NCBI GenBank assembly: GCA_049840735.1
Contig: JASGJN010000026.1
Span: 416,001-480,000, forward strand
Direction: 5' to 3'
Length of the DNA stretch: 64,000 nucleotides
Source of the DNA: Anaeromyxobacter sp.
GTDB taxonomy: Bacteria > Myxococcota > Myxococcia > Myxococcales > Anaeromyxobacteraceae
Shown: one piece after another, positions 1-15,025 of the stretch
Numbering within the stretch: position 1 is the first letter of the stretch
Layout of the letters: every line of letters begins with the position of its first letter
Translations under genes and position numbers: made by a program
The notes under the pieces: generated by a model
Told to the model about the DNA's origin: nothing
The model's input: the letters and a program-made list of their open reading frames with translations, nothing else
Database searches by the model: none

Positions 1-2616
1 CCGCCACCAGCACCCTCGTCCTCCGCGGCCTGGGCTTCGGCGCCACGCAGGGCACCGGCGCGGTGACGCTGGACGGGGCGCAGGCGCTGACGGTCACCGC
101 CTGGACCGACACGCAGATCACCGTCCGCATCCCCCCCGGCGCCGTCGCGCCCGGCCCCCACCAGCTGGCGGTCTCGGCGGCCAACGGGCTGCGCACGGTC
201 AACGGCCTCACGCTGCACGTGCTGCGCAGCCCCTACCTGCCCACCGTCCGCGAGGTGGGCCCGGGCCGGACCTACGCCACCATCCAGGCCGCGCTGGACG
301 CGGCGGCGGCCGGGAACGGCCCGCAGCTGGTGGTGGTCTACCCCGGGAACCCGGACCCGGCCAACCCGCGCCTCAACCCGCGCGGCGCCTACTTCGAGAA
401 CCTGATCATCTCGCGCCCGGTGAAGCTCCAGGGCGTGGGCCCCGGCGGCTTCCAGGGCACCACCTACGTGCCCGGCTCGATCGTGGACGGCGGCGCCTTC
501 GGCGGCGACGGCGCGCTGGCCGACGCCTGGCGCGCCCGCGTGGACGCGCTCACCTGGAGCGGCAACCAGACCGTGTTCGAGGGGGCCACCATCACCGTCC
601 TGGCCACCGCCGGGCAGTTCGGCCAGGCCTACCCGGCCACCATCGACGGCCTGGACGTCCGCGGCGGCGATCAAGATGGGCTTCCCCGGCAACATCAACC
701 AGATTGGCGGGACCCCCACCGGCCTCCCCGCCAACGCCATCACGCAGGGCGGCGGCATCTTCGTCAACGGCTACGCCCCCTACCTGCGCATCACCAACGA
801 CGTGCTGGAGGCCAACGGCGGCGCCTACGGCGGCGCCATCCGGCTGGGCACGCCCAACCTGCCGGCGCCCCTCACCTCCAACCGGAACGAGCTCGTGAGG
901 ATCCTCAACAACCGGATTGTCGCGAACGGCGGCACCAACCTGGCCGGCGGCGTGGGCATCTTCGCCGGCGCGGACGGGTTCGAGCTGGCGCACAACGACA
1001 TCTGCGGCAACTCCTCGGCCGAGTACGGCGGCGGCCTGACCGTCTACGGCTACAGCCCCGGCGGCCGCATCCACCACAACCGGATTTGGTTCAACAGCTC
1101 CTACGACGAGGGCGGCGGCGTGATGCTGGCCGGCGAGCTCCCGGCCGACCCGGGCACGCTCTCCCCCGGCACCGGCGCGCTGGAGGTGTCGGCCAACCTC
1201 ATCCAGTCCAACCTGGCCAACGACGACGGCGGCGGCCTGCGCCTGCTCATGGTGGGCAACTACCCGGTGGACGTCTTCAACAACGTGATCGTCAACAACG
1301 TCTCCACCCACGAGGGCGGCGGCGTGGCGCTCGACGACGCGCCGGCGGTCCGGTTCTTCAACAACACGGTGATGAAGAACCTCACCACCGCCACCGCCGT
1401 CACCAGCAACGGCTCCCCCGCGCCGGCGGGCCTCTCCACCGCGGCCAACAGCGACGCGCTCCAGGCGGTGCTGCCGCCCGGCGCGCCCACCTTCTCGAGC
1501 CCGCTGCTGTTCAACAACGTGTTCTGGGACAACCGGGCCGGCGCCCGCTCCGGGGCCACCGTGCTGGGCATCGGCCTGCCCGGCGACGCCAGCCCCGTCC
1601 ACCCCTGGGACCTGGGCGCCGGCGACGGCAGCGGCCTGCTCACGCCCACCGCCTCGGTGCTGCAGACCGCCGAGGGCACGGTGCCGGACGCCAGCAACAC
1701 GCTCGCCGATCCGCTGGTGATGCAGCCCTACGACACCTCGGTCGCGCTGGCGCCCTGGCGCACCAACCCCAACTTCATCGGCGCGGTGATGGTGGTCACG
1801 CCGCTGCCGCCCAACCTGATGGGCGACTACCACCTGACCCAGGCCTCGCCGGCGGTGAACACCGGCGTGCCCTCCCGGGCGGGCATCGCCGCCCCCGCGC
1901 TCGACTTCGACCTCCAGCTCCGGCCGGCGGGCGGCGCCTTCGACCGCGGCGCCGACGAGCAAGGCGCGGTGGCGCCGGGCGGCGGTGGCGGCGGCGGCGG
2001 CCCGGGCGCCGCCTTCCCCTCCACGCCCATCCTCGACGCGTTCACCCGCGCCAACACCAGCTCCGGCCTGGGCGCGAGCTGGACCGGCAACGGCGGCGCC
2101 TTCCAGATCTTCTCCAACCAGGTCCGGACCACCTTCGGCGTGGGCGGGGCGCTGCGCTGGAGCCCGGCCGTCTTCGGGCCCAGCCAGGAGGCGTACTTCA
2201 CCTTCACGCGCGTCTCGGTCGTCGGCTACGAGCAGGCGCTCCTGCTCAAGCTGAACGGGACCTCGCCGACCTCCACCAACGCCTCCGGCATCGAGGTCCG
2301 CTACAACGCGCTCACCGCCACCGCCAGCGTCCTGACGCGGGTGCCGGGCGCGGGCTGGGTCCAGCGCGCGAGCTTCCCGGTCACCTTCGCCGCCGGCCAG
2401 CAGCTGGGCGCGCGCGCCCTGCCGGACGGGACGGTCACCGTCTTCCGCAACGGCTCGGCCGTGGGCACCACCAACGTCACCGCCGGCGTCAACCCCTGGC
2501 CGGCGGTGTACGCGAGCGGCGGCGGCCGGATCGGGTTCGCGTTCGGCGGCGCCTTCTTCCCCCTGCTCGGCACCGACGCCCGCATCGACACCTTCGGCGG
2601 CGGGACCATGCCGTGA
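1..2616 (+). CDS. Large secreted protein, 5'-partial: IPT/TIG domain, right-handed parallel beta-helix and C-terminal beta-sandwich; apparent frameshift at ~672
   Basis: IPT-like 'VTAWTDTQITVRIP', then 'YATIQAALDAA' and repeated GGG(I/V)/N-ladder motifs ('TQGGGIFVNG', 'YDEGGGVMLAG', 'NDDGGGLRLL', 'THEGGGVALDD'). Frame 63 joins ORF 676..2616 if one base is removed in 'gatcaagatg'. Confidence 0.75.
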
Positions 2617-2636: not shown

Positions 2637-3951
2637 ATGACCCAGCCCACCGATCCCAAGCGCATCACCCGCCGCCACCTGCTCCGGGGCGCCGGAGGGG
2701 GGCTCGCGCTCCTCGCCGGCGGCGGTCTCCTGCCGCGGCCGCTCTCGCGCCTGCTCCTGCCGTCCAGCGTCGGGGTGGCCGGCGCGGCGGACGACCCGCC
2801 GCACGACCTGTTCTTCGCCGGCACCGACGGCTGGATTTGGCTGCCCGAGGCGCCGGCCCTCCGGCCCTTCCACCCGGACGTGCTCGCGCCGCCGCCGTTC
2901 ACCACCTACGTGTTCGGCTTCCGCAACGTCACCGGCCTCACCGCCACCGAGCGGGCCGCGCAGAAGTTCAAGGCGCAGCACTCGGCCCCGCTCTGGTGGG
3001 TGGACCAGTACGACGGCGCGCGCGAGTTCCGGGTGGCGCTCGACCAACCTGGGGCTGGGCATGCGGCCCGACCTCACCGACGCCCACACGCTGCACTGGC
3101 ACGGCTTCCGGAACGTGCTGCCGTTCTTCGACGGGGAGCCCACCGGCTCCTTCGGCGTGCCGGCGGGGCGGATCTTCGTCTACGCGTTCCGGCCGCGCGA
3201 TCCCGGCACGTACATGTACCACTGCCACGTGGAGGACACCGAGCACGTCCACATGGGCATGACCGGGATCGTCTTCGTGCGCCCGGCCATAGGCCCCGGG
3301 TTCGCCTACAACGACCCCGCCACCGCCTTCGACCGGGAGTACGCCATGTTCCTGTCGGAGGTCTGGGCCGAGGCGCACTGGTGCGACGCCCACATCCAGC
3401 TGCCGGACTGGACCGACTACCGGCCCGACTTCTCGCTGCTCAACGGCCGCGTCTGGCCGGACACGCTGCTCCCCAGCGGCTCCATCGACCCGTTCCACCC
3501 GGTGCGCGCGGCCGGCGGTGATCTGCTCCCGCCCGGCGGCGAGGAGCGGCTGCGCTACCAGCCGTACTCGTCGCTGGTCACCTGCAACGCCGGCGAGCGC
3601 GTGCTGCTCCGCTTCGCCAACCTGGGGTTCCGCGAGGCGGCCATGCGCTGCGCCCTGCGCCTGCGCGTGGTGGGCAAGGACGCCACGCCCATGCGCGGGC
3701 GCGACGGCACCGACACCAGCTACGAGGCCCAGACGCTCTCCTTCGGCGCCGGGGAGTCGATCGACGCGATCTTCACCGCCCCGCCCCACGGCGGCGGCGC
3801 CGGCCCGGACGTCTACGTGCTGGAGGACCGCGACCTGAGGCGCTCGGGGAACCTGGCGCAGGGCGGCTTCGGCGGGCGCCGCACCGAGATCCGCGTCCAC
3901 CCGCCGGGCACGCTGCCGCCGCAGCGCTACCCGCACGACGCCTGGCTGTGA
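2637..3951 (+). CDS. Tat-exported two-domain multicopper oxidase-like protein (MCO1); frameshift ~3042
   Basis: RBS aggaga at 2625, ATG 2637. Twin-arginine signal 'ITRRHLLRG'. Copper motifs 'HTLHWHG' and 'YMYHCHVEDTEHVHMGM'. Confidence 0.85.
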
Positions 3952-3962
3952 GGAGACCGACC

Positions 3963-5221
3963 ATGACCGCCCTCCGGATCCCGGCCCTCGCCGCCCTCCT
4001 CCTGGCCGCGCCGCTCGCCGTCGCCGCCGACCCGGCCGTCGGCCTGGCCGGCTGCCCCGCGTCCCCGCCCGCCAACCCCACCTACGTCCTCACCGCCACC
4101 GACGGCTACATCCAGCTGCCGGACGGCAACACCATGTACATGTGGGGCTACGCGCCGGCCGGGGGCGGCTTCCAGCACCCCGGCCCGGTGCTCTGCGCCA
4201 GCGCCGGCGACACGGTGACGGTGGTGCTGCGCAACGACCTCGCCCAGGCCGTGTCGGTGGTCTTCCCCGGGCAGGAGGGCGTGACCGCCGACGGCGCCCC
4301 GGTGCAGCCGCAGTTCACGGACGGTGCGCTCACCTCGCTGGCCCAGGCGGCGCCGCCCGGCGGCGGGACCGTCACCTACCGCTTCGTGGCCGGCCGCCCC
4401 GGGACCTTCGCGTACCACAGCGGCACCGACCCGGCCACGCAGGTGCGGATGGGGCTGTTCGGCGCGCTGGTGGTGCGGCCGGCCGGCGTCCCGCTCCAGG
4501 CCAGCGGCCGGGCCGACAGCGCCTTCACGGAGGGGGAAGAGTTCCTGGTGCTCCTCTCCGGAGATCGACCCGCTGCAGCACCAGGCCCTGGAGAGCGGGC
4601 TCCCCTACGACGCCAGCGCCTACCAGGCGCGCTACTGGCTGCTCAACGGGCGCGGCTTCCCCGACACCGTGGCCGACAACTTCGCGCCCTGGCTGCCCAC
4701 GCAGCCCTACGGCGCGCTGGCCCGGGTCCACCCCCTCGATCCGGTCGCCCACCCGCGCCCCGGCCTCATCCGCTACCTGAACCTGGGCGCGGAGAACTAC
4801 CCGTACCACCCGCACGGCAACAACGGCCTGGTGATCGCGCGCGACGGCTTCCCGCTCGGAGGGGCCGGGCGGCGAGGACCTCTCCATGGAGAAGTTCTCG
4901 GTGAACGTGGCGCCCGGCCAGACCTGGGACGTCCTCTTCAGCTGGCACGACGCCGAGGCCTACTCCGAGGCCAACCCGGTGCCGGTGACCGTGCCCAGCT
5001 ACGCCAACCTGCAGCTGGGCATGTTCTACGGCGGCTCGCCGTACCTGGGCCTGACCGGCCCGCTGGGGCCGGGCAAGTCCACGCTCAACCAGTGCGGCGA
5101 GCTCTACGTCATCTCGCACAACCACGCCCTCGACCGGCTCACCGGCTGGGGCGGCGTGACCATGGTCGGGCCCATCACCTACCTGCGGGTGGACCCCCCG
5201 CTGCCGAACACCTGCCCGTAG
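3963..5221 (+). CDS. Secreted two-domain cupredoxin/MCO-like protein (MCO2); frameshifts ~4560 and ~4870
   Basis: Sec-type signal peptide. Cupredoxin signatures 'MWGYA..HPGPVLCASAGDTVTVVLRNDL', 'RPGTFAYHSG', 'WLLNGRGFPDT'. His pairs 'YPYHPHG' and 'ISHNH'. Pieces lie in ORFs 3948, 4324 and 4886. Confidence 0.8.
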
Positions 5222-5236
5222 CGCCCGGAGACGGCC

Positions 5237-8158
5237 ATGACGCGAACCCTCCCGCGATCGCTCCCGACCTGTCTATTCCTGCTGGCCCTCGCTCCGGCGG
5301 CGGGGCGGGCCGACCCGCTCCCGCTGCAGGCCTGCGCCGAGCCGGTGGCCGGGCAGCCCACCTGCGCCCTCCACGCCGGCGCCGGCACCCTGGCGCTGCC
5401 GGACGGCTCGACCGTGCCGGTGTGGGGCTACGCCGCCGCGGAGGGCGGCGCCGTGACCTCGCCCGGCCCCGTCTACGTGGTGCGCCAGGGCGACCAGGTG
5501 ACCCTCACCCTCCACAACGACCTGGGGGTGGCCACCTCGCTCCGCCTCTCCGGCCTGTCCGGCGCCCCCGAGCTGCCGGCGGTGGCGCCCGGCGGCAGCG
5601 CGGACCTCTCCTTCGTGGCCGCGGCGCCGGGCACCTACCGCTACGAGGCCGGCGCCTCGCCGGGCACGCAGTACCAGGTGGCCATGGGGCTGCACGGCGT
5701 GCTGGTGGTGCGCCCGGCTGCGGACGGCACCGCCTACGGCGATCCCGCCAGCGCCTTCGACGACGAGGCGGTGGTGGTGCTCTCCGAGCTCGACCCGGCC
5801 CTGCAGGCCGCGGCGGAGCCGGCCGCCTTCGACCTGCGCAGGCTGGCGCCGACCTGGGGCCTGGTGAACGGCCGGCCCTACGCCGGCGCCGCCGCCTCCG
5901 ACCTGGTGGTGCCGGTCTCCGCGGGGCCGCGCCGGCTGCTCCTGCGCTACGCCAACGCCGGCAGCGCGCCGCGCGCCATGGCGCTGCTGGGCCTGCCGCA
6001 GGCGCTGCTGGCGGTGGACGCCGCGCGGCTGCCCTGGGCGCAGCGCGGGGTCTCGCAGGCGCTGGGCGCCGGCCAGACCGCCGACGCCGTGGTGGTGGTG
6101 CCGGGTGGCCTGGCGGAGGGGTCGCGCTACGCGCTCTACGACGCGAGCCTCTCGCTCCACAACCCCGGCCAGGCCGGGCTGGGCGGCATGATGACGTTCC
6201 TGCGGGTGGGCGCGCCCGGCGCGGGCGGCGGCGAGCTGCGCCCGACCACCGGCGGCGTGGCCGTCGCGCCGGCCGCCACCGCCGGCCTGTCGGTGACCGT
6301 CAGCGCCACCGTCTCGAGCCCCGGCGGCGACGTGCTGGCGGCCGAGGCCTTCCTGGACGCGCCCGGCGCGGACGGCGCCGGCGCCGCGCTGGCGGTCACC
6401 GCCGCGCCCTCCGTCACCGCCAGCGGCGCGCTGGACGTGGGCGCCGCCGCCTCGGGGGTCCACGCCGTCCACGTGCACGGGCGGAACGCGGCGGGCTGGG
6501 GGCCGTTCGCGGTCGGCACCGTGCGCATCGACCGGGCCGGCCCGCTCACCAGCGCGGTGGCGGCCAACCCCGCCGCCACGCGGGGCGCCGCCGCGGTGGT
6601 GGTCTCGGCCACCGGCGACGATCGCGCCACCGGCGGCTCGGCGGTGGTGGCGGCCGAGCTGACCATCGCCGACCCGGGCAACCCGGCGCCGCTGGCCATG
6701 GCCGCGGGGCAGGCGGGCGACGTGACCGGCTCACCGTGACGCTGCCGCCCGCGCTGCTGGCCTCCCTGGCCTCAGGCCCGCACCTGCTCTCGAATCCGCT
6801 CCCGCGACGCCCTCGGCAACTGGGGCGCGCCGGCGCTGGCCACCGCGCTGGTGGTGGACCGCGCCGGGCCGTCGGCGGTGGCCAGCGTGGCCCCGCCGGC
6901 CACCAACGGCACGCAGGGTGTTCTCCTCCGGCGTGGCCGCGCTGCGCCTCTCCGTCACCGCCACCGACGCCCTCTCGCGCGTCGCCGGCGCGGAGGGGTT
7001 CATCGACGCCGCCGGGGCCGAGGGCAGCGGCTTCCCGCTGCTGGCCGGCGACGGCAGGTTCGACGGCCTCACCGAGGCGCTCACCGCCGACGTGCCGCTC
7101 GCCACGGTGGTGCAGCTCCCCCAGGGCACGCACGCGCTGCTGGTCCGGGCGCGCGACGCCGCCGGCAACTGGGGGACGCCGGGCCTCCGTCTCCTTCCTC
7201 TACGAGAAGGGCCGGCCCACGGTGTCCGGCCTGGCCCTCGCGCCCAGCCCCACCGGCGGCGCGGCCAGCGTCACGGTGACGGCCACCGCCACCGAATCCG
7301 GCCCCGGCCTCCGGCGTCGCGGCCGCCGAGTGGTTCGAGGGGACCGACCCCGGCGCCGGGCGCGGCGTGGCCATGGCCGCCGCCGACGGCGCCTTCGACG
7401 GCGCCACCGAGGCGCTCACCGGCACCATCCCGGTGGCCGCCCGCGGCTGGAGCGCCGGCACGCGCACCATCTCGGTCCGCGCCCGCGACCGGGCCGGCAC
7501 CTGGAGCGCCCCGGTGGCCGCCACGCTGACCATCACCGTCCCCGGGCAGCTCTTCGCCGACGGCTTCGAGGCCGGGAACCTCTCGGCCTGGAACGGCGGG
7601 GCCACCGGCGCCGGCCTGGCGGTCGCCGCGCCGGCCAGGCTGGGCCCCACCGGCACCTACGGCCTGGCCCTCGCGGTGGGCAACACCCCGGCCTTCGTCA
7701 CCGACACCACGCCCACCGCCGAGCCGTCCTACCGGGCCCGGTTCTGGTTCCACCCGAACGGCACCGGCACCGGCGGCAACGCCTGGGATCTGTTCCAGGG
7801 CGCGAGCGGCGCGCAGGTGCCGCTGCGGGTCCAGTACCGGCGGCAGGGCGCGGCCACCTACCAGGTGCGCGCGCAGCTGCTGGCGGCAGGCGGCGCGGCC
7901 GTGGCCACGCCGTGGGTGACCATCAGCAACGCGCCCCACGCCGTGGAGGTGGCCTGGACCGCCGGCACGGGCGCCGGCCCCCGGCTGCAGCTGTTCCTGG
8001 ACGGGGCCCTGGCGCAGACGCTCTCCGGCCAGAACACCGGCGCCTACCGGATCGACACCGCCCGGCTCGGGCGCGTCGCCGGCCCGACGGGGGGCGCCGG
8101 CGGCACGCTCTACCTGGACCAGTTCGTCTCCTCGCGCGGCGCGGCCATCGGGCCATGA
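5237..8158 (+). CDS. Secreted MCO-like protein without canonical copper ligands (MCO3), fused to several Ig-like repeats; ~5 apparent frameshifts between 6730 and 7300
   Basis: Signal peptide; 'VPVWGY..SPGPVYVVRQGDQVTLTLHNDL', 'APGTYRYEAG..VAMGLHGVLVVRP'. Repeats of the type 'AAEAFLD/AEGFID/AAEWFEG ... VRARDAAGNWG'. C-terminal 'LFADGFEAGNLSAW' domain (ORF 7367..8158). Confidence 0.7.
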
Positions 8159-8583
8159 GCGCGCGCCGGGACAGCCAGGGCGGGGCGGCGGGGCGGGCCG
8201 CGCTCGCGCTCGTGCTCGCCGCGGCCGGGCCGGCCGCGGCGGGCGGCGAGGGGCCGACGCTGCCGCCGGCCGCGCTCGAGGCCGGGCACGGCCTCCGGGT
8301 GGCGCGGGTGGCGCTGGTGGCGGCGGGCGGGATGGTCGACCTGCAGCTGCGGGTGCTCGACGCCGCCCGGGCCCGGGCGCTGCTGGGCCGCCACGCGCCG
8401 CTCCAGCTGGTGGTGGACCCGGGCGGCGCGGTCCTGGCGGCGCCCGGCCACGCGTCGCCGTGCAGCGCGGCCGCGGCCGGCTGCGCGGTCCTCTTCCCCA
8501 ACGCCGGCGGCGCCGTGCACCGCGGCGGCACCGTCACCTTGCTGGTGGGCGACCTGCGGGTCGGGCCCATCGTGGTCCAGTAG
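8155..8583 (+). CDS. Small secreted hypothetical protein of the MCO cluster
   Basis: ATGA overlap with the upstream stop; signal peptide; beta-rich 'GLRVARVALVAAGGMVDLQLRVLD...VLFPNAGG...TVTLLVG'. Confidence 0.65.
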   Translation: MSARRDSQGGAAGRAALALVLAAAGPAAAGGEGPTLPPAALEAGHGLRVARVALVAAGGMVDLQLRVLDAARARALLGRHAPLQLVVDPGGAVLAAPGHASPCSAAAAGCAVLFPNAGGAVHRGGTVTLLVGDLRVGPIVVQ

Positions 8584-8596
8584 GCCGGAGGACGCC

Positions 8597-10469
8597 ATGG
8601 CCCCTGCAGCGCTGCTGGTCGCACTCGATCGTCAACGCGCCGCCGGCGCTCGCGCCGGAGCTGGAGCAGGGGCTGCGGGCGCTGCCGGCGGGGGGCACGC
8701 TCGCGGTGGTGGTGCGGCTGGCGGGAGGGACCGGCCCCGCGCCGGGCGCGCTGCGGCCCGGGCCGCTGGCCGGCGCGCTGCGCGCCCGCGCGGCCGCGGC
8801 CGGCCGGGCGCTGGAGCCGGCGCTGCAGGGCTGGCGGGCGCGGGGCCTGGTGGCCCGCTGGACGCCGCTCTGGATCGTGAACGGCTACTCGGTCACCGGC
8901 ACGCCCGAGGTGATCCGGGCGCTGGCCGCGCGGCCCGACGTGGCCGCGGTCTCGCCCGACGCGCTCGACCTCTCGCCCCAGGGCGCGCCGGCCGAGCCCA
9001 ACGTGGCGGCGGTGGGCGCCCCGGCGCTCTGGGCGGCCGGCTTCACCGGCCAGGGCGTGACGGTGGCCATCCTCGACACCGGCGTGGACGTGAGCCACCC
9101 CGACCTGGCGGCGCGGTGGCGCGGCGGCCCCGGCGGCTGGCTCGACCCCTACGGCCAGCACGCGTCGGCCCATGACGCCAGCGGCCACGGCACCTGGACC
9201 GCCGGCGTGCTGGTGGGCGGCGAGGCGGGCGGCACCGCGCTGGGCGTGGCCCCCGGCGCCCGCTTCATCGCCGCCAAGGTCTTCCCGGACGCCGGCCCGG
9301 CCACCGCCACCGCCGTCCACGCCGCCTTCCAGTGGGTGCTGGACCCGGACGGCGACCCGGCCACCGAGGACGCGCCGCGGGTGGTGAACGGCTCGTGGTC
9401 CTTCGGCGCGCCCGGCTGCAACCTGGAGTTCCTGGAGGACCTGCGCGCGCTGCGGGCCGCCGGCATCCTCCCGGTCTTCGCCGCCGGCAACTACGGGCCC
9501 GGCGACGCCACAAGCACCTCCCCGGGCAACTACCCCGAGGCCCTGGCGGTCGGCGCGCTGGACGGCGGCGGCCGCCCCCTCGACCTCAGCAGCCGCGGCC
9601 CCTCCGCCTGCGGCGGCGGCCCGTTCCCGGCGCTGGCCGCGCCCGGGCTCGACGTCTGGACCACCGACCTCATGGCCTGGTACCTGCCGGCCAGCGGCAC
9701 CTCGATCGCGGCGCCGCACGTGAGCGGCGTGGCGGCGTTGCTGGCCTCCGCGGTCCCGGGCGCCTCCGCCGACCAGCTGGCGGCGGCGCTGCAGGCGGGC
9801 GCGCTGGACCTGGGCGCGCCGGGGCCGGACCCGGCCACCGGCCGCGGGCAGGTGGACGCGGCGGGCGCGCTCCAGGCCCTGCTGGCCCCGCCCGCGCCCC
9901 AGCCCCCGGTCGCCTCCGCCGACGCGTACACGCTCGACGCCGGCACCTCGGCCACCTTCACCGCGCCGGGCGTGCTGGCCAACGACGCCTCGCCCAGCGG
10001 CGCGCCGCTCTCGGCCGAGCTGGCGGCGCCGCCCGCCCACGGGCAGCTGGCGCTGCGCGCCGACGGCGGCTTCGACTACACGCCCGACGCCGGGTTCTCC
10101 GGGGCGGACGGGTTCGGCTACCGCCCGCGCGCCGCAGGGCTGGCCGGCGCCGTGGCGGCCGTGGCGCTGACGGTGCGCCCGCCCAACCAGGCCCCGGTGG
10201 CGCGCGCCGACGCGGCCCGCACCGCCCCCTCCACGCCGGTGGCGGTGCCGGTGCTGGACAACGACGCCGATCCCGACGGGGCGCTGGCGCCGGCCACGCT
10301 CGCGGGGGTCGCGCGGCCGCAGCACGGGCGCGTGTCCTACGCCGGCGGGCGCGCCACCTACACCCCGAGCTTCGGCTTCCGCGGCCGTGACACGTTCACC
10401 TACCGCGTGCAGGACGACCGCGGCGCCTGGTCCAACGCGGCCCGGGTGACCGTGGACATCAAGAGGTGA
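8597..10469 (+). CDS. S8 (subtilisin-like) serine peptidase with two C-terminal Ig/cadherin-like (tandem-95-type) domains; frameshift ~8626
   Basis: RBS ggagg and ATG 8597. Triad motifs 'AILDTGVD', 'GHGTWTAG', 'SGTSIAAPHVSG'; oxyanion 'FAAGN'; 'PVASADAY..GVLAND' and 'APVARAD..PVLDNDADPDG' repeats. Confidence 0.9.
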
Positions 10470-10473
10470 CCTG

Positions 10474-11310
10474 ATGCGCTGCCTGGCCCGCCCCGCTCCC
10501 TCCCTCGCCGCCCTCGCGCTCGGCGCCGGAGCCCTCCTGGCCGGCTGCGGCGGCGACGCGCCCCCCGGCGCCGCGCCGCGCCCGTCGCGCGCGCCGCTCC
10601 AGCCGGAGCAGGCGCTGCGGGTCGAGGTGGCGCTGGGGGCGGGGCCCGACCGCCACCCGCTGCCGGACGTGGAGGTCAGCTTCATCCCCGAGGCGCTCAT
10701 GGTGGCTCACCTGGAGCGGCGGCAGGCGGAGGTGGCGGGGCGGCTGGAGCGGCTCCGGGCGGAGACGGAGCGGCTCCACGGCGCGCTGGCGCGGCAGCAG
10801 GCGGTCAACGAGCAGGCCAGCCAGGCCTATGCCCGCCAGTCGGGCGACTACCTGCGCGACCGGACCGCGCTCAACCTGTCCCGCGGGCACTCCGCCTCCG
10901 ACGTGACGGCCGCGCGCGCCTCCCTGTCGCGCGATCGCCGCACCGCCCGGCTCACCGCCGAGGCGGTGGCGCGCGACACGCTGGCGGCGGAGCGGCGGCT
11001 GCACGCGGTCCGGGCCGAGCTGGAGCGGGTCCAGACCGAGACGCTGCTGGCCGGCCTGCCGCAGCCCATGAAGCTGGCGCGGACCGGGCCGGACGGCCGG
11101 GCGGAGCTCACGCTGCCGCCGGGCCGCTACGCGGCGGTGGGGCTGGCTCCGGCCGGCGCCGGCGCGCCGGCGGGGCCGTGGCTGGGATGGGTCGAGGTGC
11201 AGGCGCGCCCCGGCCTGCTGGTGCTGGACGACGCCAGCGCGAGGGCGCTGGAGCCGGGCCTGGCGCGCCAGGCCGCGGGTGAGGCTTCCACCGGAGGAGT
11301 GCAACCATGA
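10474..11310 (+). CDS. Hypothetical lipoprotein with a central coiled coil
   Basis: Lipobox 'LLAGC'; helical Ala/Arg/Glu-rich middle; stop overlaps the SCO start. Confidence 0.6.
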   Translation: MRCLARPAPSLAALALGAGALLAGCGGDAPPGAAPRPSRAPLQPEQALRVEVALGAGPDRHPLPDVEVSFIPEALMVAHLERRQAEVAGRLERLRAETERLHGALARQQAVNEQASQAYARQSGDYLRDRTALNLSRGHSASDVTAARASLSRDRRTARLTAEAVARDTLAAERRLHAVRAELERVQTETLLAGLPQPMKLARTGPDGRAELTLPPGRYAAVGLAPAGAGAPAGPWLGWVEVQARPGLLVLDDASARALEPGLARQAAGEASTGGVQP

Positions 11311-11918
11311 TCGCGATCCGTCCTGCCCTGCTGACCGCGCTGGCGCTGGCCGCCGGCGCCACCGCCGCCGAGGCCCCATGCCCGTGCCACGCCGGCAAGC
11401 CGGCGGCGGCGCCCGCGCGCGCGGCCGTCACCCGCACCGCGCACGCCTACGCGCCGCCGGACGTGACCCTAATCGACCAGGACGGCCGCCCGGTGGCGGT
11501 GGCCGAGGCCCTGGCGCAGGGCGGACCGCTGGTGGTCAACTTCATCTTCACCACCTGCACCACCATCTGCCCGGTCATGAGCGCCTCCTTCGCCGGCCTG
11601 CAGCGCCAGCTGGGCGCGGCGGGGGAGGGGCTGCGGATGGTGTCGATCACCATCGACCCCGCCCACGACCGGCCCGCCGAGCTCGAGGCCTACGCGCGCC
11701 GGCACGGGGCCGGGCCGGGCTGGACGTTCCTCACCGGCCGCGAGGAGGACGTGCGGGCGGTGGCGAGCGCCTTCGACGCCTGGGTGGCGGACAAGGCCGA
11801 GCACCGGGCCTTCACGCTGCTCCGGCCCGCCGGGAGCGCCACCTGGGTCCGGGTGGAGGGGCTGGCCGGCGCGGCCGCGCTGGCCGAGGCGCTGCAGCCG
11901 CTCCAGGCCGGGCGGTGA
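11307..11918 (+). CDS. SCO1/SenC family copper chaperone
   Basis: 'LIDQDG', 'NFIFTTCTTICP' (CxxxC), 'SITIDPAHD', 'WTFLTG', conserved His in 'AEH'. Confidence 0.92.
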   Translation: MIAIRPALLTALALAAGATAAEAPCPCHAGKPAAAPARAAVTRTAHAYAPPDVTLIDQDGRPVAVAEALAQGGPLVVNFIFTTCTTICPVMSASFAGLQRQLGAAGEGLRMVSITIDPAHDRPAELEAYARRHGAGPGWTFLTGREEDVRAVASAFDAWVADKAEHRAFTLLRPAGSATWVRVEGLAGAAALAEALQPLQAGR

Positions 11919-13483
11919 CCGTGGGCGCGCTGGCGGCCCTGCTGGCGGCGGCGCTGGCCGCGGCGCCGGCCGGGGACGCCGCGGCCGGCGAGCGGCTCTA
12001 CCGCGACGGGCGGCTGGCGGGCGGGGCGCCGGTGCAGGCCGTGGTGCTCGACGGGCTGCCCATCAGCGGCGCGCAGGTGAGCTGCGCGGCCTGCCACGGG
12101 CGGAGCGGGATGGGCGCGGACGAGGGGGGGGTGGTCACGCCCTCCATCACCGCAGCGACCCTGGCCGCGCCGCGCGGCGGCGAGCGGCCGCGGCCGGCCT
12201 ACGACCGGGCCGCGCTGGCGCGGGCCATCCGCGAGGGCGTGGACGCCGCCGGCCGGCCGCTTGATCCGCTCATGCCGCGCTTCCGCCTGGAGGGGCGGGA
12301 GCTGGAGGCGCTGCTCGATCACCTGGGCGGCCTCTCGGCGCGCCCCTCGCCCGGCGCCGGCGAGGCGCTGCACCTGGCCACCGTGATCGCGCCCGACGCG
12401 CCGCCGGAGGTGAGGGACGCCACGCTCGCGGTGCTGCGCGCCTACGTGGCGGCCCACAACGCGGCCGCGCGCGTGGAGCGGCTGCACCACCGCCGCGTGC
12501 AGCGCCCCACGCTGGGGGACGAGGAGCCGGCCAGCGACTGGGTGCTCCACGAGTGGACGCTGCGCGGCGCGCCCTCGTCCTGGGGCGCGCAGCTCGCGGC
12601 CCAGCAGCGGGCGCAGCCTGCCTTCGCGGTGGTCAGCGGTGCGGGCGGGGCGCGCTGGGAGCCGGTGGACCGGTTCTGCGAGGCGCAGCGGCTCCCCTGC
12701 CTGTGGCCGAACCTGGTCACGCCGCCCGAGGCGGAGGGCTTCTACGCGCGCTACTTCTCGCGCGGCCTGCGGCTGGAGGCGGACACCGTGGCCGCCGACC
12801 TGGCGCGGCGCGGCGGCGGGCAGCGGGTGCTGCAGGTGCTGCGGCGCGGCGGGCCGGGGGCGGCCGGCGCGGCGGCGCTCTCGGCGGCGCTGCGGCGCCA
12901 GGGCGTGCCCGCGGAGGCGCTGGCGCTCGGGCCGGCGGAGGCGGTGGACGCCGGGCGCCTGGAGGCCGCCGCGCGACGGTCCGGCGCGACGGCGGTGATG
13001 CTCTGGCTGCGCCGCGAGGAGCTCGCCCTGCTGGCCGGCGCGCCGCAGCGGCTGGACCGGGTCTACGCCTCGTCGGCGCTGCTCGACGGCGACCTGTCCG
13101 CGGCCGCCGCGCTCCCCGCCCGCCGCGTGGCGGTGGCGCACGCGTGGGCGCTGCCGGAGGACGCCGCCGCGCGCGAGGCCGCCTCGGAGGGCTGGTTCCG
13201 GGCCGCCGGGCTGGGGCCCGCCGGCGGCGCTGCGCGGCGCGCGCGCGACCAGTCCTTCGCGGCCATGCGGCTGCTGGGGCAGGCGCTGATGCACCTGGAG
13301 GAGTCCGGCGCCTTCCAGCGGGACTTCCTGCTGGAGGTGCTCGATCACGGCGCCGGGCCCTGGGATGCCTCGGCGCAGCACCCGCGGCTCACGTTCGGCC
13401 CGGGCCAGCGGTACCTCTCGACGGGCTGCTACCTGGTGCCGGTCGGGGAGGAGGCCGGGGCGCCGGCGTGGATCGTGCCCTGA
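11915..13483 (+). CDS. Cytochrome c fused to a type-1 periplasmic binding protein-like domain
   Basis: GTGA overlap; signal peptide; heme motif 'SCAACHG'; probable axial Met in 'DPLMPRF'; alpha/beta C-terminal region ending 'PRLTFGPGQRYLSTGCYLV'. Confidence 0.8.
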   Translation: MTVGALAALLAAALAAAPAGDAAAGERLYRDGRLAGGAPVQAVVLDGLPISGAQVSCAACHGRSGMGADEGGVVTPSITAATLAAPRGGERPRPAYDRAALARAIREGVDAAGRPLDPLMPRFRLEGRELEALLDHLGGLSARPSPGAGEALHLATVIAPDAPPEVRDATLAVLRAYVAAHNAAARVERLHHRRVQRPTLGDEEPASDWVLHEWTLRGAPSSWGAQLAAQQRAQPAFAVVSGAGGARWEPVDRFCEAQRLPCLWPNLVTPPEAEGFYARYFSRGLRLEADTVAADLARRGGGQRVLQVLRRGGPGAAGAAALSAALRRQGVPAEALALGPAEAVDAGRLEAAARRSGATAVMLWLRREELALLAGAPQRLDRVYASSALLDGDLSAAAALPARRVAVAHAWALPEDAAAREAASEGWFRAAGLGPAGGAARRARDQSFAAMRLLGQALMHLEESGAFQRDFLLEVLDHGAGPWDASAQHPRLTFGPGQRYLSTGCYLVPVGEEAGAPAWIVP

Positions 13484-13755
13484 GGAGCGGTCGGGGGGCT
13501 GCGCCCGCCGCCCCGCCGCTGGCTCCGGTGGAGGCTCGGCCGGCTGGCCCGTACCCGAGGTGCGGGAGGTCCCGGGCCCATCGACCCTTGGCGGCACCCC
13601 ACGGATCGAGATCGTTAGCGCCGATCGCCCCGCGGATCCAGCCCCCTGGCGTCGATCTGCGCTGATCGACCAGGCCGGCGCCAGGCGGCTGACGGACGCC
13701 CCCGAAAAGCGAAGGCGTCGTGGGCAGGTGGGATCGATCGCGGCGGCGGCCGGGC

Positions 13756-13792
13756 TATGATGACCCAGCAATGTTGCCAGCCACGGCAACAT
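13756..13792 (+). promoter_or_regulatory. Possible -10 element (TATGAT) followed by a perfect inverted repeat ATGTTGCC-N6-GGCAACAT upstream of hpf
   Basis: TATGAT at 13756-13761; inverted repeat at 13771-13792 read directly from the sequence. Confidence 0.35.
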
Positions 13793-13887
13793 CGGTGTCG
13801 GCCGCGGAACCGGCGGGGCTCATGAGCCGCCGGGACGCGGCCGATGCATTTTCAGCCCGTCCGCAGCAGCACCAAGGAGGCGGTTCC

Positions 13888-14446
13888 ATGCAGGTGAACA
13901 TCACCTTCCGTCATCTCGAATCCCACCGAGGCCCTCAAGGCGCACGTCCGCGAGCGCGTGGCGCACGTCCAGCGCTACATCGATCGGCCGTCCGAGGCGC
14001 ACGCGGTCCTGCACGTCGAGAACCTGCACCACCACGCCGAGATCACCATGAAGGCCGGCCGGTTCCTGCTGCGCGGGACGGCGCGGACGGAGGACATGTA
14101 CGCCTCGATCGACCAGGCCGCGGACAAGATCGAGCGGCAGCTCAAGAAGCACAAGGAGAAGCTCCACAACCACAAGGCCAACGGCGTGGCGGTGGCCGAG
14201 GGCGAGCCGGTGGACGTCCGCCACGACATCCTCGACATCCTGGACAACCCGGACCGCCCCAGCCACCGCGTGGTGAAGAGCGAGCAGCTCAAGGCCAAGC
14301 CCATGTCGGTGGACGAGGCGCTCCTGCAGCTGGAGCTCCTGGATGAGCGGTTCCTGGTGTTCCAGAACGCGAACGACCGCGCCATCAACGTCGTCTACCG
14401 GCGCGAGGACGGGAACTTCGGGTTGATCGAGGCGCGCACCGCCTGA
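13888..14446 (+). CDS. hpf: Ribosome hibernation promoting factor, long HPF/RaiA (sigma-54 modulation protein); frameshift ~13919
   Basis: RBS aaggagg. 'MQVNITFRHL(D)PTEALK', 'DMYASIDQAADKIERQLKKHKEK', and C-terminal 'KPMSVDEALLQLELL...FLVFQN...NVVYRREDGNFGLIE'. Confidence 0.92.
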
Positions 14447-14566
14447 GCTCCCCGCGCGTCCCCGCCCGTCGAAGGGCGGGCGGGGGCGCGCGCGTCTCCG
14501 CGGGGACGGCCGGCTCGTCTTGCGTTCTTGCCCCGGCGTTGCCAACTGTGTTAACGCCGGTTCGCC

Positions 14567-15025
14567 ATGAAGATCGTCGAGTTCCTCCGGCCCGAGGGCG
14601 TCATCGCAGACCTGTCCGGCCAGACCGGGCAGGCCGTGCTGGCGGAGCTCTGCCGCCCCCTGGCCGGCGGACCGCGCGCCGACGGGCAGCGGCTCCTCGA
14701 GACGCTCCTCGACCGCGAGAAGCTGGGCTCGACCGGCATCGGCGAGGGCGTCGCCATCCCGCACGGCAAGGTCCCCGGCCTGCCGGCCCTCACCGCCAGC
14801 TTCGGCCGCTCCGTGCCCGGGGTGGACTTCCGCGCCATCGACGGCAAGCCCACCTACCTGTTCTTCGCGCTCTTCGCGCCGGAGAACTCGGCCGGCGCGC
14901 ACCTCAAGGCGCTGGCCCGCATCAGCCGCATCTTCAAGAACCCCGCCTTCCGGGAGGCCATCCTCAAGGCCCCGGATGCGGCGGAGATCTACCGGCTGAT
15001 CGAGGGCGAGGACGCGAAGTACTGA
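14567..15025 (+). CDS. ptsN: PTS IIA-like nitrogen-regulatory protein
   Basis: 'REKLGSTGIGEGVAIPHGK' (phospho-His), 'DFRAIDGKP', 'HLKALARISR'; follows hpf. Confidence 0.9.
   Translation: MKIVEFLRPEGVIADLSGQTGQAVLAELCRPLAGGPRADGQRLLETLLDREKLGSTGIGEGVAIPHGKVPGLPALTASFGRSVPGVDFRAIDGKPTYLFFALFAPENSAGAHLKALARISRIFKNPAFREAILKAPDAAEIYRLIEGEDAKY

Follow-up and report, generated by a model that had tools for sequence, protein, structure and literature searches.

Two-domain multicopper oxidases (MCOs) are described, in the portions of the literature examined, as trimers of one gene product, and in the type C class, according to the part of PMC13151041 consulted, the copper cluster sits at the subunit interfaces, where domain 1 of one chain meets domain 2 of its neighbour. 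Type C enzymes, namely the blue copper oxidase of Nitrosomonas europaea (3g5w), the metagenomic laccase 2zwn and 3gdc, have the type 1 (T1) copper site in domain 1 and are homotrimers with 12 ligands per chain and three sites. We analysed a 64,000-nucleotide stretch of an Anaeromyxobacter sp. genome (GCA_049840735.1, contig JASGJN010000026.1, positions 416,001 to 480,000 of the forward strand; hereafter the window), in which a six-frame reading gave three tandem, related cupredoxin genes on the + strand, at 2637–3951, 3963–5221 and 5237–8158. A first-pass annotation had named them MCO1, MCO2 and MCO3 and proposed that they form a heteromeric oxidase with a split active site; they are called subunits A, B and C below. 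On our reading, A/B/C would work like a type C two-domain oxidase but lacks the one-chain ligand set: the T1 site is in domain 1 of A, as in the type C enzymes, whereas no chain is complete and only one site per ring would be expected. The ligand partition, the gene order and a three-chain model lend support to the heteromeric proposal.

Subunit A (2637..3951, + strand) begins at the ATG at 2637 with a twin-arginine translocation (Tat)-like signal (TRRHLL) and contains two cupredoxin domains, with a frameshift near 3040. Its T1 site and four histidine residues of the trinuclear cluster were all found in domain 1. The HxxHxH motif HTLHWH (3085..3102, + strand), which aligns to domain 1 of 3g5w, supplies by homology a T1, a type 2 (T2) and a type 3 (T3) histidine, and an HCH-x5-H-x4-M motif (3220..3261, + strand) supplies, likewise by homology, T3 His, T1 Cys, T3 His, T1 His and the axial Met; domain 2 is devoid of HxH. 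The first-pass annotation had located both motifs correctly and had reported no histidine motif in domain 2; its pattern HCH..H....M exists as well, with the first spacing understated. Subunit B (3963..5221, + strand; ATG at 3963) has a Sec-type signal, a ligand-free domain 1 and frameshifts near 4560 and 4860. SVVFPG and YHSG stand at its domain-1 motif sites, leaving one stray histidine and no cysteine, and domain 2 contains four cluster histidine residues in an HPH motif (4807..4815, + strand) and an HNH motif (5117..5125, + strand), both invariant in 70/70 sequences. Subunit C (5237..8158, + strand; ATG at 5237) consists of a two-domain cupredoxin module (~5345–6205) followed by immunoglobulin (Ig)-like repeats; with SLRLSG and YEAG at the motif sites it lacks both ligand sets. 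These descriptions of B and C agree with those given at first pass. Thus the eight cluster histidine residues that a type C enzyme has in one chain are distributed as four in A, four in B and none in C, and the ligand count read from these sequences excludes canonical sites in a homotrimer. In copper nitrite reductases the T1 cysteine is not followed by histidine and the T2 site has three histidine residues, whereas A has HCH and four cluster histidine residues in domain 1.

The annotation had suggested checking whether this partition is conserved in homologous clusters. A genome scan gave at least 530 relatives among 599 stretches, and a metagenome scan seeded with distant relatives gave 546 among 600; the best 80 from each were kept, making a sample of 160 homologous loci. 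The partition recurs in these 160 other loci, far beyond chance. All eight domain-1 ligands of A were kept in 160/160, and A is the only subunit with a T1 site in domain 1. Both domain-2 motifs of B were present in 125/133 loci, the other eight being truncated with the first motif kept, and HCH was found in 0/133; a ligand set was found in C in 0/119. Among A homologues from a protein search that was not motif-seeded, the domain-1 set occurred without a domain-2 motif in 120/120 and 40/43 sequences, and none of the top 150 matches of a B-profile search had the full set in one module. The same profile matched only this cluster in the genome of the window. In gapless profile alignments the lost histidine residues were replaced by T or A in A, by A, P, E or G in B, and by G or L in C. 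The last domain-2 motif, at which A and C had gaps in the joint alignment, was looked for by pattern searches instead. An HxH after the T1 methionine in ten A sequences lay in loops or tails by context and not at ligand positions.

The model of A had 2zwn and 3g5w as its top matches by both fold and sequence (sequence E 3.9e-10; Foldseek E 5e-17 and 7e-17). It matched them over the full length, and all three subunits can be aligned with one another, giving two cupredoxin domains per chain. The annotation had given SLAC-type small laccases as its example of two-domain MCOs; the closest solved relatives are instead type C (3g5w, 2zwn), SLAC is type B with the T1 site in domain 2, and no HCH was found in domain 2 of A, B or C. 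A three-chain model was then built from the trimmed A, B and C proteins of locus L006 and scored for C as partner. C scored 0.82, compared with 0.45 for the best control, the complex-score mark being reached by 116/157 solved complexes and 2/215 mismatched pairs; the runs agreed in at least 94% of contacts and the predicted local distance difference test (pLDDT) score of the partner was at least 72. In the model, nearly all contacts between C and A fall on domain 2 of A, including the former ligand positions 285, 287, 345 and 347, and on B the interface of C takes in the former ligand positions 62 and 64 of domain 1, whereas none of the eight cluster histidine residues is listed in it. C would therefore join where the ligand logic requires, and the direction of the modelled ring, which is more telling than the pass itself, would leave domain 1 of A and domain 2 of B as the free faces. 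A Glu–Arg salt bridge substituting for copper at the C1/A2 interface was considered and rejected, since the model pairs that arginine with the GPG loop of C.

Gene order is conserved together with the ligands. B lies within 400 bp after A in 147/149 loci with room, which argues against the singly occurring homologues that the annotation had named as a refutation, and C follows in 115/117; the loci that depart from this are L092, where B starts at 441 bp, L054, where B and C share a reading frame, and L104, where A stands by itself. In-frame B-linker-C fusion proteins were found from separate assemblies (P0171 and P0172, the latter alongside an 886-amino-acid cluster member). P0171, P0172 and P0320 share a basic linker domain, with linkers of ~170 and 440 amino acids; such long linkers are as expected if domain 2 of B faces A and not C. 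The long A–B proteins P0004 and P0007 were kept out of the fusion count: each is represented by one sequence whose modules are truncated, and both are probably read-throughs, as L047 and L054 may be too. No A-C-B six-domain fusion was found among 43 longer A matches or 150 B matches, which is weak evidence of absence. The first-pass annotation had overlooked a fourth component, a giant secreted protein whose gene (~1,700–2,600 codons) lies upstream in 113/113 loci with upstream room and is fused in frame to A at 11 loci and to C at three. In the window it is represented by its 3′ part (1..2616, + strand; ~1,900 amino acids in total); the gene starts ~3.2 kb before the window and has a frameshift near 675.

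The gene cluster is already in print for Sideroxydans lithotrophicus ES-1, as Slit_1812–1818 in the portions consulted of PMC5566968 (He et al.) and PMC12016527 (Keffer et al. 2025). According to the latter portion, Slit_1812–1818 are more abundant on magnetite, with log2 differences for Slit_1816, Slit_1817 and Slit_1818 of 7.7, 5.5 and 3.5 between late fresh magnetite and late Fe(II)-citrate. The peptides published there match by eye the A (Slit_1818), the B (Slit_1817, HPFHFHG) and the C–giant fusion (Slit_1816, 2,873 amino acids) of L144 and L171, the clade of L171–L173 being the best match. By these peptides, matched by eye, the ES-1 cluster is a distant member of the split-oxidase family. 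It has SCO, cytochrome and small genes as in the window, whereas it falls in a distant clade (the A of the window is 29% identical to the similar A of L173) and its giant protein is fused to C. In the part of PMC12016527 consulted, two ES-1 proteins are given typical motifs and one is not, and the words 'trimer' and 'histidine' are absent from the main text. Nmar_1354 of Nitrosopumilus maritimus (9cck) is a two-domain oxidase described as a heterotrimer, as proposed for A/B/C, whereas a single gene encodes all its subunits, which differ in whether they carry a pendant domain, and there is no partition of the core ligands among paralogues. The IoxA–IoxC and MofABC/OmpB clusters likewise pair an oxidase located outside the cell with partner proteins, and include SCO or cytochrome genes, whereas IoxA has all four copper-binding regions in one chain and no split site is described. 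Ceruloplasmin and other six-domain oxidases consist of one chain in which a two-domain unit occurs three times, with one trinuclear cluster in all and T1 sites in the even domains. A/B/C, in contrast, are three genes with T1 in domain 1, and thus represent a parallel route and not a shown ancestor. A ligand split among paralogues was not found in print: no description was met in the literature searched, which had subscription journals outside its scope, nor in the portions consulted of PMC11761707, PMC9415286, PMC9040806, PMC13386937, PMC7036934, PMC10367259 and bioRxiv 10.64898/2026.01.22.701106.

Taken together, we consider it likely that A, B and C are exported and form an O2-reducing A:B:C ring, whose only T1 site lies in A and whose only trinuclear cluster lies at the A1/B2 interface, and that C links the ring to the giant protein. 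The ligand partition, the gene order, the fusions and the fold are observed here, and the joining of C and the direction of the ring are modelled, whereas we infer the 1:1:1 stoichiometry, the copper binding, the cluster between A and B and the reduction of O2. A substrate would be oxidized at the single T1 copper in domain 1 of A, and the electrons would pass via the Cys-His link to the single trinuclear cluster, to which A domain 1 and B domain 2 would each contribute four histidine residues and at which O2 would be converted into water. The B1/C2 and C1/A2 interfaces would be metal-free. C would close the ring, with its Ig-like repeats and the giant β-helix protein mounting the ring outside the cell, and copper could be supplied by SCO or CopC/CopD. 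By analogy with ES-1, and from those data alone, reduced metal at surfaces, for example Fe(II) minerals or Mn(II), may tentatively be named as the substrate; otherwise it might be polymeric organic matter. We put forward with still more reserve, as a doubtful reading, that this is a widespread, obligately heteromeric one-site oxidase on a giant β-helix protein that oxidizes solid-phase reduced metal extracellularly, which could explain the magnetite-induced ES-1 cupredoxins and would represent a living symmetry-breaking step that six-domain oxidases reached by fusion. With one active site divided among paralogues, motif screens would miss or mis-score a common family, matched by at least 530 stretches of the genome collection, and expression of a single gene would yield inactive protein. 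The magnetite-induced ES-1 cupredoxins should be studied as a complex, with the four histidine residues of B as a specific mutational target, and the split oxidase would offer a natural model for the passage from three-site trimers to one-site enzymes.

Several observations weigh against this A:B:C ring. Since histidine-containing patterns served to find the loci, the count of A in them is inflated, and both B and C are missing after A in L104, a contig that is probably chimeric (at L104:3-1592 a partial A is joined to a solute-binding-protein-like fragment). O2 reduction is an assumption, given that many hosts (Anaerolineae, sediment contigs) are unlikely to be aerobes, and to our knowledge most near-clade hosts (Actinomycetota, Chloroflexota) are not known iron oxidizers. 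The model, made from the trimmed L006 proteins, scored C only, the A–B contacts falling outside its listing; the pass of C may come from its likeness to solved homotrimers, and C still scored 0.45 with A replaced, so that B and C may pair without A. The best percentiles given for ES-1 in the part of PMC12016527 consulted are 29.5 for the A-type protein and 74.8 and 79.3 for B and C; the A-type protein is thus the scarcer one, which does not suggest a strict 1:1:1 ratio. There is also an extra C-like paralogue in L110, and two C modules stand in tandem in P0232. The last three observations would also be in line with an arrangement in which A and B share the cluster while the third seat can be taken by different subunits (A2B, AB2 or alternative C-like subunits), C acting as an optional tether; in addition, C is the least conserved subunit, with a mean column identity of 49% compared with 57% and 64% for the other two. 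C is nevertheless present in 115 of the 117 loci, occurs in fusions with B or the giant protein, and passes as partner in the model, and we therefore regard a variable third seat as unlikely, if the best of the alternatives. The second C-like paralogue of L110 (18137-19714) stands alone ~4 kb after the operon and groups with C in the tree described below; the tandem C-type modules of P0232 are ligand-free and followed by a dockerin-like tail.

We next considered whether the ring could be an electron-transfer or non-O2 enzyme, in which T1 would exchange electrons with a co-encoded cytochrome c and the interface copper would act on a nitrogen oxide or hydroxylamine. This is improbable: all eight histidine residues of an O2-reducing cluster are retained, compared with three in nitrite reductases, and although cytochrome c and SCO genes occur in the proteobacterial and myxococcal clusters, a cytochrome c gene lies within the flanks of only 4/64 near-clade and 3/22 far-clade loci. 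The probably anaerobic nature of many hosts would fit such an enzyme, as would the oxidation of hydroxylamine by the type-C-like Nmar_1354, stated in the part of PMC11761707 consulted. It is more improbable still that A alone forms a homo-oligomer with an extra pair of domain-2 histidine residues as substitute ligands, leaving B and C to other roles. The two extra histidine residues of A are invariant in 78/78 near-clade sequences, but only one of them is kept in the far clade, an equivalent histidine residue is common in B, and the four invariant histidine residues of B would be left without explanation.

That the genes of the window are decaying pseudogenes of an ordinary oxidase is hardly credible, since the seven or more frameshifts in A, B and C that would favour this are set against intact homologues with the identical partition, high identity across the breaks and similar frame damage in housekeeping genes, a pattern that long-read indels would give. 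The frame breaks lie near 3040 in A, near 4560 and 4860 in B, and near 6730–6800, 6917, 7187 and 7305 in C, none of them at a ligand motif, and hence frame errors do not account for the missing ligands. A tblastn search with the intact set of L003 ran across the breaks with 73–79% identity in the upstream gene and A, 57–78% in B and 51–65% in C. Among the matches listed, this Anaeromyxobacter metagenome-assembled genome (L003, 79%) is the closest named relative. The upstream housekeeping genes (kdsB/pyrG and kdsA), read by eye, are broken likewise. The high identity across the breaks and the damage to these genes make it likely that the frameshifts in the window are assembly indels of the long-read type. 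The annotation had allowed that corrected sequence might restore full ligand sets in each gene; in the intact homologues the partition is the same. Even with genuine frame breaks in the window, the family-level conclusion stands. A codon-phase statistic for the genome-wide frameshift rate gave noise and was dropped.

A quick tree, unrooted and built from 49 sampled rows, grouped each of A, B and C across clades with support of 100, 92 and 88 respectively (C including one extra paralogue), which fits one old three-way split. The hosts of the family belong to Actinomycetota, Chloroflexota, Myxococcota and Proteobacteria, and one search gave 7,882 A-like proteins. In the phylum of the window, A was matched in 7/201 genomes, and A, B, C and the giant gene were present in all seven regions from six other genomes. 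The cluster of the window sits in a clade whose members come mostly from Actinomycetota and Chloroflexota, while the clusters in other genomes of the same bacterial family fall in the distant clades (L174, L175); gene transfer of the cluster is possible. The Tat signal reported for MCO1 at first pass is present in the window, but is a feature of the near clade only: a rough twin-arginine motif was found on A in 61/72 near-clade and 0/69 far-clade sequences.

The giant protein contains SdrD_B-like and TIG domains, a right-handed β-helix and a C-terminal lectin-like sandwich. Its C-terminal part gave a low-confidence fold (pLDDT 50.9), the last domain alone matched carbohydrate-binding sandwiches such as CBM66, and its Atlas matches were generic β-helix clusters. 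In a Chloroflexota locus (L007:1703-9511) the giant protein has five N-terminal PASTA domains, and in L001 a winged-helix/TPR-type regulator gene, identified by eye (12710-14722), stands just before the giant gene and after rpoN. Downstream of C, all on the + strand, the window encodes a small secreted protein without a Pfam family (8155..8583), which resembles Slit_1815 peptides by eye and has homologues in 62/64 near and 19/22 far loci, and an S8 subtilase with a cadherin/Ig-like tail (8597..10469), which has a frame break near its start and homologues in 62/64 near and 16/22 far loci. A 278-amino-acid open reading frame with a lipoprotein-like start and no Pfam match (10474-11310) lies between the S8 and SCO genes. 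The SCO1/SenC copper chaperone gene (11307..11918) was found in 6/7 of the own-phylum regions and within the flanks of 6/64 near and 4/22 far loci, and CopC/CopD within the flanks of 46/64 near loci. A protein with a cytochrome c domain and a long C-terminal portion (11915..13483) resembles Slit_1812 peptides by eye, and is MofC-like by the description in PMC5566968.

A third clade, L171–L173, occurs in the window's own taxonomic order; its T1 loop reads HCHITPPEH and its C is part of a fusion with the giant protein. A-type modules also stand behind a PAP2-superfamily domain (precomputed PF22778 and PF01569; vanadium haloperoxidase-like) in P0018, P0020, P0024, P0026–P0028 and P0030–P0033. Genome G165 carries two different clusters.

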